Origin: a virus
Lineage: Duplodnaviria > Heunggongvirae > Uroviricota > Caudoviricetes
Length of the DNA stretch: 4,951 nucleotides
Direction: 5' to 3' (one strand)
Virus record (IMG/VR): IMGVR_UViG_2695420650_000004
Below the pieces are notes generated by a model. It saw only the letters and a list, made by a program, of their open reading frames with translations, made no database searches and was not told the DNA's origin. Every line of letters starts with the position of its first letter. Positions within the stretch are counted from its first letter, which is position 1. This document shows positions 1 to 4,815 of this stretch, piece by piece. The translations under genes and the position numbers were made by a program.

Positions 1-119
1 ATTAGCTCCTTCTGATGCCATTCTATTTCAGGAAGGAGTGTCCGTTAAACTCAGGCTACCTCAGGTTATTCGCTTCTGGGCATGGGCGGATCAACAAATG
101 ATAGACGGTAATGCAGATT

Positions 120-138
120 GTAACGCTCGCGGCGTTAC
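120..138. promoter_or_regulatory. 19-bp dyad-symmetric site GTAACGC-N5-GCGTTAC (site A), candidate iteron or operator
   Basis: Read directly: GTAACGCTCGCGGCGTTAC, with 7-bp arms that are exact reverse complements. The same arms recur at 329-347. Confidence 0.4.
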
Positions 139-328
139 AAAAAGTGCAATAGATCGCATCACTTTTATGTCTGGTTTTGCTGATGCGTTAATTCAGGTTG
201 GATGGCTGGTCGAAAATGACGGAGGGCTTTCTCTACCTAACTTTGAACGTCATAACGGAAAAAGCTCTAAAAAAAACGGGCGGTTACAAACGAGCGAGTA
301 ACAAAAATACGCGAACTGAAACGAAAAG

Positions 329-347
329 GTAACGCTGCCAGCGTTAC
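329..347. promoter_or_regulatory. 19-bp perfect palindrome GTAACGCTG-C-CAGCGTTAC (site B), candidate iteron or operator
   Basis: Read directly: 9-bp arms that are exact reverse complements. It shares the GTAACGC/GCGTTAC arms with site A, with a further half-site GCGTTAC at 364-370 and a near half-site GCGGTTAC at 280-287. Confidence 0.4.
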
Positions 348-373
348 ACAAACGGATCAAAAAGCGTTACCAG

Positions 374-393
374 AGGAAGAGGAAGAGGAAGAT
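374..393. repeat. Tandem hexamer microsatellite (GAGGAA)x3.3
   Basis: GAGGAAGAGGAAGAGGAAGA read directly; it encodes the EEEEEE(D) acidic linker in frame 1. Confidence 0.7.
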
Positions 394-746
394 CTAAATA
401 CTGATCTCCCCCTCGCCAAAAACGAGCGTCTAAAAAATTCGAGCCGGAGGCTATTGAGCTGCCCGATTGGTTGCCGGAAACACTCTGGCATGAGTGGGTC
501 CGGTTCAGACAGGCATTGCGAAAACCGATTCGAACGGAGCAGGGCGCTAACGGGGCGATACGGGAACTGGAAAAATTCCGTCAGCAGGGTTTTACACCTG
601 AGCAGGTGATTCGACACAGCATCGCCAATGAATACCAGGGCCTGTTCGCGCCGAAAGGTGTTCGGCCTGAGACGTTGCTCCGACAGGTTAACACCGTCTC
701 GTTGCCGGACAGTGCGATCCCGCCAGGCTTCAGGGGGTAACGGACC

Positions 747-1493
747 ATGAAAAATATTGCGACAGGCGGCGTTCTGGAACGCATCCGCCGACTGACCCCG
801 CCACATGTAACCGCCCCATTCAGAACGGTAGCGGAGTGGCGCGAGTGGCAACTTGCTGAAGGCCAGAAACGTAGCGAGGAGATCAACCGCCTGAATCGCC
901 AGTTGCGGGTGGAAAAAATTCTGAATCGCTCAGGCATCCAGCCGTTGCACCGTAAATGCTCGTTTGCGAATTACCAGGTGCAGAACGACGGCCAGCGATA
1001 CGCGTTAAGCCAGGCGAAATCCATCGCCGATGAACTGATGACCGGGTGTACAAATTTTGCGTTCAGCGGAAAACCTGGTACCGGGAAGAATCACTTAGCG
1101 GCAGCTATCGGGAATCGCCTGCTGAAAGACGGTCAGACAGTGATTGTGGTTACCGTGGCTGATGTTATGAGCGCCCTGCACGCCAGCTATGACGACGGGC
1201 AGTCAGGCGAAAAATTTTTGCGGGAGCTGTGCGAAGTGGATCTGCTGGTTCTTGATGAAATTGGCATTCAGCGCGAGACGAAAAACGAGCAGGTGGTGCT
1301 GCACCAGATTGTTGATCGCCGGACAGCGTCGATGCGCAGCGTGGGGATGCTGACAAACCTGAACTATGAGGTGATGAAAACATTGCTCGGCGAGCGGGTG
1401 ATGGATCGCATGGTCATGAACGGCGGGCGCTGGGTGAATTTTAACTGGGAGAGCTGGCGTCCGAATGTTAGCCATTCGAGGGTTGTTAAGTAG
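747..1493 (+). CDS. dnaC: DnaC-like replicative helicase loader (AAA+ ATPase), phage-encoded
   Basis: 248-aa ORF with Walker A GKPGTGKNHLAAAI and DnaC-like motifs along its length (NRSGI, CSF.NY, VDLLV(L/I)DEIG, GMLTN, LGERVMDRM, NW(E/D)S(W/Y)R). ATG 747 lies 6 nt after the upstream stop, with a G-rich ribosome-binding site at 733-737. Confidence 0.9.
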   Translation: MKNIATGGVLERIRRLTPPHVTAPFRTVAEWREWQLAEGQKRSEEINRLNRQLRVEKILNRSGIQPLHRKCSFANYQVQNDGQRYALSQAKSIADELMTGCTNFAFSGKPGTGKNHLAAAIGNRLLKDGQTVIVVTVADVMSALHASYDDGQSGEKFLRELCEVDLLVLDEIGIQRETKNEQVVLHQIVDRRTASMRSVGMLTNLNYEVMKTLLGERVMDRMVMNGGRWVNFNWESWRPNVSHSRVVK

Positions 1494-2812: not shown

Positions 2813-3178
2813 ATGGCACTGACGAAAAAACAACGTGCAGAACTGCGCATGAAGTTCGGTGGTCGCTGCGCTTATTGCGGCTGCGAACTTGGCGAAAAGT
2901 GGCATGCAGACCATGTAAAACCGGTCATTCGTTTTGATGGAAATATGCTTCACCAGGAACGTGACGATATATCCAACATGGTACCAGCATGCCACCCATG
3001 CAATCTGCACAAGCATTGCAGTAGCCTGGAAGATTATCGACGAATTATCAGTGATGGTCGTCGTGAATTCCTTGCGTCCGGGAAAGGCAAAGCGCTGGTT
3101 CGTATGGGATTGGTTGAAATGAAATCTGACCCGGTTGTGTTCTGGTTTGAAAAATATCAAGAAGGGGCTACGGCATGA
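2813..3178 (+). CDS. HNH endonuclease (small, about 121 aa)
   Basis: Zinc-knuckle and catalytic motifs: CAYCGC ... HADH ... N ... CHPCNLHK. Ribosome-binding site AAGGA at 2800-2804 sits 8 nt before ATG 2813. The longer ORF from 2723 lacks a ribosome-binding site and adds a non-domain N-terminus. Confidence 0.85.
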   Translation: MALTKKQRAELRMKFGGRCAYCGCELGEKWHADHVKPVIRFDGNMLHQERDDISNMVPACHPCNLHKHCSSLEDYRRIISDGRREFLASGKGKALVRMGLVEMKSDPVVFWFEKYQEGATA

Positions 3179-3840
3179 CCACTATTACCAAAGAGCGACT
3201 GCAATGGCTGGCTAACATTTCTGGCCGCGATGATATTGACGATATAGACGGCGGTGAAATTCGTGAACTGGCGCTTATCGCTCTGGCATCACTGGAAGCA
3301 GAGCCTGTAGCGGAATGCATTGTTGAAGATGGGGGCATGTGTATTGACGGGTTCGGTGAGTATGTGGGTCACTCGCTGCCTGATGGAATGCATGAGCTTT
3401 ATGCTGCCCCGCGAATGCGACAACCTGATGGATGGAAAGCCGTAGCTGTAGCGTGGAAGGTGACGTTTACTCAAGTTGACCAGGAATCTAATACGTTCAC
3501 TGCTATATATTTTGACAAAGCGGAAGTTGAGTGTTGGGTACGACTGCATAAAGCATGTGATTTTCGGGCAGATATAACACCGCTTTACGCAGCGCCGGCA
3601 GTGCCGGTTGCAGTAAACGACGACATGGCTTACGCATTCCATCACGCACTGTCAGATTCATCGCTTGGCTCTGATGAAATCGAAGAAATTAAAACCGGTT
3701 TGCGTGCTGCCTTTGCCAACGTCACTATCCAACCAGAGCCGATAGTGCCGGATGAAATCGGGCCAAACGATAGTAATACGTTTGATTATGTTGATGGCTG
3801 GAACGCCTGCCGCGCTGCCATGCTTAAGGGAGATAAATAA
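3175..3840 (+). CDS. Hypothetical prophage protein (221 aa, acidic) with an internal repeated LYAAP motif
   Basis: ATG 3175 overlaps the HNH stop (ATGA), with GAAGGGG at 3161-3167. The LYAAP motif occurs twice (HELYAAPRMRQPDGW and ITPLYAAPAVPVAV). Function is not recognised. Confidence 0.8.
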   Translation: MTTITKERLQWLANISGRDDIDDIDGGEIRELALIALASLEAEPVAECIVEDGGMCIDGFGEYVGHSLPDGMHELYAAPRMRQPDGWKAVAVAWKVTFTQVDQESNTFTAIYFDKAEVECWVRLHKACDFRADITPLYAAPAVPVAVNDDMAYAFHHALSDSSLGSDEIEEIKTGLRAAFANVTIQPEPIVPDEIGPNDSNTFDYVDGWNACRAAMLKGDK

Positions 3841-4455: not shown

Positions 4456-4491
4456 TAGCGTTTTCTTATCGGTGTCGGTAAGATTGCTGCG
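4456..4491 (+). promoter_or_regulatory. Putative weak promoter of the hok/mok mRNA
   Basis: -10-like TAAGAT at 4479-4484 with a poor -35. The predicted start near 4491 would give a 5' end GGGUGCUUGAGG, resembling the plasmid R1 hok mRNA 5' end (GGCGCUUGAGG) as I recall it. Confidence 0.4.
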
Positions 4492-4540
4492 GGTGCTTGA
4501 GGCTGTCTGCCTCGGGTATGTCACTGTAAGGCAGACAGAG

Positions 4541-4611
4541 AAAAGCCCCAGTTAACATTACGCGTCCTGCAAGACGCTTAACATTAATCTGAGGCCCAAT
4601 CTATGTCTCAC
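4541..4611 (-). ncRNA. sok: Sok-like antisense RNA (type I antitoxin), predicted
   Basis: A minus-strand promoter is readable as -35 TTGCCT (complement of 4641-4646), a 17-bp spacer, and -10 TAACCT (complement of 4618-4623), which parallels my recollection of the R1 sok promoter. The transcript would be antisense to the mok ribosome-binding site and start codon. A predicted terminator is a 7-bp stem (complement of 4589-4595 paired with 4545-4551, one G-U pair) followed by UUUU. Confidence 0.5.
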
Positions 4612-4815
4612 AAATGTAGGTTAGCCTCTTACGTGCCGAAAGGCAAGGAGAAGCAGGCTATGAAGCAGCAAAAGGCGATGTTAATCGCCCTGATCGTCAT
4701 CTGTTTAACCGTCATTGTGACGGCACTGGTAACGAGGAAAGACCTCTGCGAGGTACGAATCCGAATCGGCCAGACGGAGGTCGCTGTTTTCGTAGACTAC
4801 GAATCTAGAGAGTAA
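4603..4815 (+). CDS. mok: Mok-like reading frame (in-frame N-terminal extension of hok that couples hok translation)
   Basis: ATG 4603 with GAGG at 4591-4594. The 70-aa ORF MSHKCRLASYVPKGKEKQA-MKQQ... has the same architecture as chromosomal MokC/HokC as I recall it. Confidence 0.6.
   Translation: MSHKCRLASYVPKGKEKQAMKQQKAMLIALIVICLTVIVTALVTRKDLCEVRIRIGQTEVAVFVDYESRE
4660..4815 (+). CDS. hok: Hok/Gef family type I toxin (51 aa)
   Basis: MKQQKAMLIALIVICLTVIVTALVTRKDLCEVRIRIGQTEVAVFVDYESRE is near-identical in pattern to HokD/RelF and HokC/Gef. Ribosome-binding site AAGGAG at 4645-4650 precedes ATG 4660. Confidence 0.85.
   Translation: MKQQKAMLIALIVICLTVIVTALVTRKDLCEVRIRIGQTEVAVFVDYESRE

Follow-up and report, generated by a model that had tools for sequence, protein, structure and literature searches.

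The window, that is, the whole 4,951-nucleotide stretch analysed here, contains the early region of a Rac-like lambdoid prophage, as judged from its ORFs and their domains. It holds the following features:

1..62, minus strand: left end of an IS3-family insertion sequence (IS); relatives align to the window from position 63 on only
63..740, plus strand: remnant (pseudogene) of a ydaU-type replication initiator gene, delimited by alignment to an intact gene (L001:3898-4686)
269..276, plus strand: run of eight A residues in ydaU, two more than the A6 of intact genes, from alignment to the intact gene
406..407, plus strand: position where 10 bp (TCCCCCTAAA) flanked by direct repeats have been lost from ydaU, from alignment to the intact gene
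747..1493, plus strand: ydaV, an intact gene for a DnaC/IstB-like ATPase (Pfam IstB_IS21, E=1e-19; also Bac_DnaA)
4491-4665 and 4603-4815, plus strand: hok/sok-type toxin-antitoxin locus (Rfam RF01794, sok antitoxin, 118 bits; 70-aa Hok/Mok-like ORF)

The ydaV product is presumed to be the helicase loader partner of the initiator, and further genes belong to the DUF977, zinc-ribbon, HNH and DUF551 types. Elsewhere in the window, a 51-nt direct repeat (98% identical, with a GC-rich stem, CCGCCC-GAAA-GGGCGG) lies at 2380-2430 and 2536-2586, on either side of a run of N at 2514-2535, which suggests an assembly gap inside a duplicated or repeated element.

The IS end replaces the first 103 bp of ydaU together with the non-coding dyad cluster upstream of it, and cuts the gene at codon 35. 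Window positions 1-62 recur at 6249 places in E. coli genomes, beside transposase starts, and in loci identical to the window (L164, L166 and L167, with the IS end at 2255-2316) the gene for a 385-aa HTH_Tnp_1+rve transposase adjoins it, on the minus strand and immediately beyond the left edge of the window. Three complete genomes (CP146292.2, CP022457.1 and CP049181.1) share this IS junction, and the lineage is probably Shigella sonnei. Within the remaining gene, the A8 run shifts the frame and leads to a stop at 299-301, while the 10-bp deletion after position 406, which is shared with six related complete or draft genomes, constitutes a second frame-disrupting lesion. The A8 state is also found in three complete genomes identical to the window and, because this identity extends over positions 1-1496, the lesions are real rather than sequencing errors. 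The ydaU gene of the window is thus dead through IS truncation and two frame-disrupting lesions. A reading of the DNA made from the sequence alone (the sequence-only reading) had placed a repeat array inside the replication initiator gene; the array does lie within a ydaU-type initiator gene, but in the window that gene is an IS-truncated, frameshifted pseudogene.

The array consists of the 7-bp half-site GTAACGC and its reverse complement GCGTTAC, with exact copies at 120-126 (plus), 132-138 (minus), 329-335 (plus), 341-347 (minus) and 364-370 (minus). These matches confirm the two 19-bp dyads with identical 7-bp arms and the additional half-site described from sequence alone; both dyads are perfect, and their arms reach 9 nt at 118-126/132-140 and 329-337/339-347. 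The elements of the array, with the tract that follows it, are given below; the degenerate half-site at 108-114 and the all-purine tract had escaped the sequence-only reading:

108-114, plus strand: degenerate half-site GTAATGC (one mismatch), with which cluster B opens; the half-site at 120 follows at a distance of exactly 12 bp
120..138, no strand: dyad B, GTAACGC-tcgcg-GCGTTAC, coding for C-N-A-R-G-V-T in a low-confidence loop of the N-domain
329..347, no strand: dyad C, GTAACGC-tgcca-GCGTTAC, linker-coding (G-N-A-A-S-V-T in the intact gene)
364..370, minus strand: terminal half-site GCGTTAC, 23 bp after the preceding half-site, read in another frame as K-A-L-P
372-392, plus (sense) strand: all-purine tract of 21 nt, AGAGGAAGAGGAAGAGGAAGA, beginning 1 nt past the last half-site

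The claim that the motif recurs far above chance is borne out: five copies lie within 120-370, as against 0.44 expected over the whole window in shuffled sequence, and the maximum in any shuffle was three, so that 0/200 shuffles reached the six copies that a window scan detects when a solitary GTAACGC-type copy at 2295 is included. A count over the wider genome, which the sequence-only reading had proposed, shows that GTAACGC does not belong to a dispersed repeat family. Along 50 kb of an E. coli chromosome, seven copies fall in the 0.88 kb of ydaU and eight in the other 49 kb, where about six random copies are expected; among related loci, motif density is 9.8 per kb in the gene versus 0.13 per kb in the flanks, a difference of about 78-fold. 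Another proposed member of the array, a near half-site at 280-287 (GCGGTTAC), was ruled out because it is not kept as a DNA motif among relatives, where it encodes an invariant R-A-V/L-T; its resemblance to the half-site is probably fortuitous. Both dyads had also been said to encode N-A-x-x-V-T in the local frame, which holds for the intact 262-aa gene (codons 54-60 and 123-129, with the terminal half-site at codons 135-137) but only partly for the window, where the +2 frameshift and the stop at 299-301 leave the second dyad untranslated.

The intact 262-aa protein of a relative starts with a winged-helix-like N-domain, which a disordered linker joins to a C-domain that ends in a DnaT-like tail; the structural matches are weak. 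Along its whole length (residues 1-262) the protein matches PHROG 2509, 'replication initiation protein', at E=1.2e-89, and over residues 77-236 only it matches PHROG 678, 'O-like'. A Pfam search of the window ORFs and the intact protein returned no family for ydaU, BLASTP detected no similarity to lambda O (E=1.5), and among NCBIfam models the DnaT tail was the sole match to YdaU. The last 19 residues of YdaU (RQVNTVSLPDSAIPPGFRG) are close to the C-terminus of E. coli DnaT, with a profile E-value of 0.06.

We compared the array across about 115 distinct relatives; a protein-based scan limited to one genome per species gave 27 loci. In nearly all of these 27 loci, exact GTAACGC half-sites occupy the same places relative to the start codon, in three clusters about 190-210 bp apart:

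-56 to -20: cluster A, non-coding, within the 77-bp gap before the start codon
+148 to +196: cluster B, coding for a loop of the N-domain
+334 to +447: cluster C, linker-coding

Their hosts include Erwinia, Yersinia, Serratia, Pantoea, Pectobacterium, Planctomycetota, and a Saccharibacteria and an Ignavibacteriae MAG, although the MAG taxon labels may be wrong. About 100 viral contigs and 27 genomes retain dyad B, either at +160/+172 or at +148/+160. Dyad C is kept between +337 and +412 in relatives, the terminal half-site is conserved as well, and the degenerate GTAATGC of the window (108-114) occupies the position of an exact GTAACGC at +148 in most relatives. In intact relatives the cluster A dyad sits 2 nt from the ydaU Shine-Dalgarno sequence. 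This upstream copy occurs in only 35/111 unique loci, in contrast to the purine tract and both clusters within the gene, which nearly all loci have. The window has 5-6 half-sites and relatives have as many as 11; copies are gained or lost in 12-bp steps, each equivalent to four residues. Window positions 296-302 (GAGTAAC) correspond to +334, where about ten relatives carry an exact GCGTTAC (R-V-T); this position seems optional, since synonymous codons have wiped out the site in E. coli. In a Pantoea locus (L017), the upstream cluster (2945-2991) and cluster B (3149-3186) are identical over about 38 nt (GTAACGCaaataGTAACGCtgcgaGCGTTACaaaaagcg), suggesting recent duplication or gene conversion between them.

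Successive half-sites are spaced by 11, 12, 22-24 or 33-34 bp, most often as inverted pairs ('>' '<' at 12 bp, n=191) but also as direct repeats ('>' '>' at 12 bp, n=57; '<' '<' at 11 or 23 bp, n=66), and 42% of all half-sites lie outside dyads, as direct repeats or in isolation. The uneven spacing that had seemed unlike regular iterons reflects three separate clusters, and inside each of them an 11-12-bp phasing is strict. Beyond the scan loci, 103/120 viral contigs with GTAACGC-N5-GCGTTAC encode a YdaU-type N-domain at the dyad (28-99% identity), a count biased towards the motif because these loci were found via the DNA pattern itself. The motif and N-domain also occur together in Xanthomonas, Pseudomonas, Ralstonia, Vibrio and Planctomycetota phages with different neighbouring genes. 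The initiator-embedded layout of the array is conserved in hundreds of phages across several bacterial phyla.

Codon usage at the repeats shows that this conservation is maintained at the level of DNA. Among homologues retrieved by protein sequence rather than by motif, the Asn of N-A-x-x-V-T is encoded by AAC in 37/38 cases (54% background in the same genes) and the Val by GTT in 37/38 (34% background). The residue before Asn may be C, G, S or R, yet its codon is NGT in 37/38, and Ser before Val is AGC in 27/28 against a background of 20% (Fisher p=1e-16, a value that overstates independence because the sequences are phylogenetically related). In other words, flanking amino acids vary solely among NGT or NGC codons while arm-internal codons are frozen, and a chance N-A-x-x-V-T elsewhere in one gene uses different codons. 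The coded stretches appear permissive: in an AF2 model the cluster B loop has pLDDT <50 at residues 53-57, and alignments indicate that it tolerates a 22-aa insertion, while the cluster C stretch is modelled as disordered linker. Since the codons are frozen, the terminal half-site is read in another frame and cluster A is untranslated, it is the DNA that is constrained, with the protein adapting to it.

The tract that follows the array is a second shared feature. Between +300 and +560, the longest purine run is at least 15 nt in 93/115 unique family loci (median 21 nt), while for control windows the median is 7 nt and the 99th percentile 14 nt; the GA-only tracts of relatives measure 15-44 nt and in many loci begin 1-2 nt past the final half-site. 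Enterobacterales have AGAGGA as the repeating unit, which encodes EEEEEE, while elsewhere it is AGAGA, read as EKRREEK or REEKRRE according to frame. Because the five-base unit gives acidic or basic peptides by lineage, the tract is a DNA feature rather than a protein linker, and an acidic EEEEEE linker as the main, protein-level constraint was rejected on the grounds that the same DNA tract encodes basic EKRR/REEK peptides elsewhere. The sequence-only reading had pointed out that in lambdoid origins an AT-rich region comes after the repeats; none is present here: A+T content is 52% at 372-392 and 55% at 371-410, versus 78% in lambda. That the GA tract serves as an unwinding or helicase-loading site is a guess, since in base composition it is unlike its lambda counterpart. 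Many E. coli and Salmonella YdaU variants (for example P0013, 376 aa) carry an insert of about 114 aa right after the purine/EEEEEE tract and hence adjoining the proposed origin; a Pfam search of the 376-aa variant found no match, and a D...ELD...K pattern may point to a nuclease-like domain of small size.

Comparison with the Rac prophage of E. coli K-12 links the half-sites to the N-domain of the initiator. Between K-12 Rac and the window lineage, YdaT is 94%, YdaV 93% and the C-terminal 119 aa of YdaU 85% identical, whereas the N-terminal 165 aa of K-12 YdaU (annotated DUF1376) are unrelated and a different repeat, (G)ATGTTCAA, is embedded in the gene at the equivalent place. The repeats of the window lineage are unrelated to those of K-12 ydaU, and just the C-terminal 119 aa align. 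In K-12 MG1655 (L151, 2761-3082), ydaU carries 5-7 copies of (G)ATGTTCAA(ACA), direct and inverted, in the linker-coding part and the N-domain, and no pure polypurine tract was found there; we consider these copies candidate repeats of the known origin oriJ.

A second exchange is seen in epsilon15 and phiPSA1, whose N-domain is about 32% identical and whose half-site is GTCCGCA/TGCGGAC, arranged as '> > < <' at 11 bp, then C, then (AGAGA)n. Among viral contigs, GTCCGCA pairs with the epsilon15-type N-domain subfamily in 53/54, and the purine tract accompanies it in 45/48. Smaller departures are also present: one locus (L028) has CTAACGC in all copies, direct repeats included, and another (L029) a TGTCACA-like site, both with the purine tract kept. 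In the K-12 Rac and epsilon15 subfamily comparisons, repeats and N-domain have been swapped together while the C-terminal domain and loader are shared. This covariation ties the initiator N-domain to the half-site, and from it we infer that the N-domain binds the repeats. In epsilon15-like (L155, 342-1511) and Vibrio phages, a C5-cytosine DNA methyltransferase gene directly precedes the initiator gene and overlaps with it.

These comparisons establish which sequence features make up the array, that they are conserved as DNA and that they covary with the N-domain, and we consider that the dyads are probably (at roughly 0.7) initiator-binding repeats, or iterons, which together with an unwinding tract form a lambda-like phage origin inside its own initiator gene. 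In intact relatives, the winged-helix-like YdaU-type N-domain would bind the 7-bp GTAACGC half-sites, which, being 11-12 bp or about one helical turn apart, direct as well as inverted, would present themselves on one face of the helix. Binding would take place at two or three clusters, one preceding the start codon and the others where the gene encodes the N-domain loop and the linker, and the bound array may distort the DNA such that the adjacent GA-only polypurine tract opens, perhaps assisted by transcription through the tract. The C-terminal domain, with its DnaT-like tail, and the DnaC-like YdaV would then recruit DnaB, so that the helicase is loaded. Binding, unwinding, helicase loading and origin activity are all inferred here from sequence patterns. 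A lambdoid-type origin of initiator-bound dyads, as the sequence-only reading had envisaged, is favoured by the DNA-level constraint, the non-coding copy, the covariation with the N-domain and the purine tract after the array, while its AT-rich region has no counterpart. A limited literature search found neither experiments on any member of this initiator family nor a published description of a GTAACGC array, and no DnaA boxes were found near the array.

In the window itself, the array is a relic, lacking both cluster A and a working initiator. No activity would be expected from the window alone because its initiator is dead, and the leftover repeats could fire only with a matching initiator supplied in trans.

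Alternatively, the repeats may be autoregulatory operators, with the initiator curbing its own expression, rather than opening an origin, by binding within its gene and ahead of the ribosome-binding site. Plasmid Rep dimers limit their own expression at inverted repeats, and the proximity of one cluster to the ydaU Shine-Dalgarno sequence, as well as the mixture of inverted and direct arrangements familiar from iteron plasmids, fits such a role; the upstream cluster could indeed mediate autoregulation. As the sole function of the array, however, autoregulation seems unlikely: the upstream copy is confined to the 35 loci noted above while the intragenic clusters and tract are near-universal, a sigma-70-like promoter was looked for near the upstream cluster and none was found, and the conserved polypurine tract would be left unexplained. 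It is a rival only in that exclusive form, because autoregulation is compatible with an origin role. The array also belongs to the early operon, which follows the immunity region, as might suit operators for a different regulator, whether the prophage repressor, a Cro-like protein, YdaT or a host factor. The sequence-only reading had allowed for such operators, but the comparisons do not support them. The 50 kb around an intact prophage contain no dyad beyond those of the array, the repressor/cro intergenic region included, which disfavours a repressor-type regulator in particular; YdaT and YdaV are 93-94% identical between two lineages with completely different repeats, and the motif travels with the N-domain into phages whose neighbouring genes differ. 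We regard a different regulator as very improbable.

Two further readings place the function of the repeats in RNA or in protein. Each dyad could form a stem-loop in ydaU mRNA (7-bp stem, 5-nt loop) that controls translation, stability or termination; the symmetric change in L028 (CTAACGC/GCGTTAG) keeps pairing, and dyad C with a weak T-run gives a terminator-like score on the minus strand. Against hairpins, 42% of half-sites are direct or isolated and unable to pair, the direct-repeat copies of L028 are altered as well, window positions 1-900 have no Rfam match up to E=1, and the 11-12-bp phasing suits protein binding on one face of the duplex. The T-run, moreover, is not conserved in other loci, and the single terminator-like match is within chance expectation. 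This makes an RNA-level function improbable, if marginally less so than a different regulator. The DNA repeat might instead be a by-product of a repeated peptide, N-A-x-x-V-T, required by the protein, and the peptide is indeed conserved in alignments. This reading is already contradicted by the codon and non-coding evidence: synonymous positions are frozen, flanks change only within NGT or NGC codons, copies occur in non-coding DNA and in another frame (K-A-L-P), and the motif lies in a low-confidence loop and linker that tolerate 4-aa and 22-aa insertions. We give it next to no weight.

If the repeats do form an initiator-binding origin, they would provide a sequence rule for locating origins, namely a half-site array with 11-12-bp phasing followed by a GA polypurine tract, applicable to the hundreds of temperate phages and prophages in which the initiator bears no annotation beyond 'hypothetical' or 'primosomal protein I'. 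GTAACGC, CTAACGC, GTCCGCA and the TGTCACA-like site would represent natural specificity variants for studying how a winged-helix initiator reads its site, and the tract raises the question of how an origin opens at GA-rich rather than AT-rich DNA. The window would further illustrate that an inactivated prophage can retain a possibly competent origin, which could be used by, or titrate the initiator of, a related superinfecting or co-resident phage of the same initiator specificity. More tentatively, a single, previously undescribed origin design may be common to a very broad family of phage initiators, ranging over Enterobacterales, Xanthomonas, Pseudomonas, Ralstonia, Vibrio, Planctomycetota and Saccharibacteria. 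In such a design the opening site would be the GA-only (AGAGA)n or (AGAGGA)n tract of the sense strand instead of an AT-rich element. Since the tract is always on the sense strand, its transcript would be purine-rich, and a stable R-loop is therefore possible on transcription; this could expose the purine strand for the DnaT-like C-domain and helicase loading. We hold this broader proposal to be possible but doubtful; if true, the R-loop at the GA tract would offer a concrete mechanism for the 'transcriptional activation' of phage origins.

The arrangement recalls several known replication systems, each in part. In the plasmids pSC101, F, P1 and RK2, direct repeats initiate replication and inverted repeats with the same half-site lie near the start of the Rep gene. 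Intact relatives have an upstream dyad beside the ribosome-binding site, where no sigma-70-like promoter was found; it may be a counterpart of these inverted repeats. The Rep initiators of iteron plasmids are winged-helix proteins, comparable with the winged-helix-like N-domain here. They interact with an adjacent unwinding element (PMC4081077), a feature that the proposed system would share. Through its C-terminal domain, E. coli DnaT forms filaments along single-stranded DNA, by which the site of helicase loading is marked (PMC13377028). The last 19 residues of YdaU are close to the DnaT C-terminus, but only this tail scores in sequence searches, and DnaT lacks a sequence-specific duplex-binding domain and acts at stalled forks rather than at an origin.

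The K-12 Rac oriJ/ydaU region, for which an active origin is reported (PMC3945230; Potrykus 2000 as cited in PMC11014345), occupies the equivalent position in the same type of prophage. Its YdaT and YdaV are 93-94% and its YdaU C-terminus 85% identical to those of the window lineage, but its N-domain and repeats are unrelated and it has no pure polypurine tract.

The lambda origin within gene O resembles the array in several respects. In both, the repeats fall within the gene of the initiator itself, at a place where the protein is permissive, and a helicase-loader gene, here the presumed loader gene ydaV, comes next; the repeats are internally dyad-symmetric, over 18 bp in the annotation of the lambda record and over 19 bp here, and in lambda four iterons are followed by a sense-strand purine-rich tract with an 18-nt purine run. 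The differences concern both the proteins and the repeats. The YdaU-type initiator has no detectable similarity to O, and its partner is DnaC-like whereas that of lambda is P. The apparent unit here is a 7-bp half-site with 11-12-bp phasing and mixed orientation, distributed over two or three clusters about 200 bp apart, one of them non-coding, in place of one compact block, and the tract is GA-only with about 50-60% A+T versus 78%. Finally, Stx phages 933W and P27 have six-iteron origins in which the added repeats lengthen the initiator (PMC7466680), and in those phages as in the family described here, the number of repeats changes the length of the protein.
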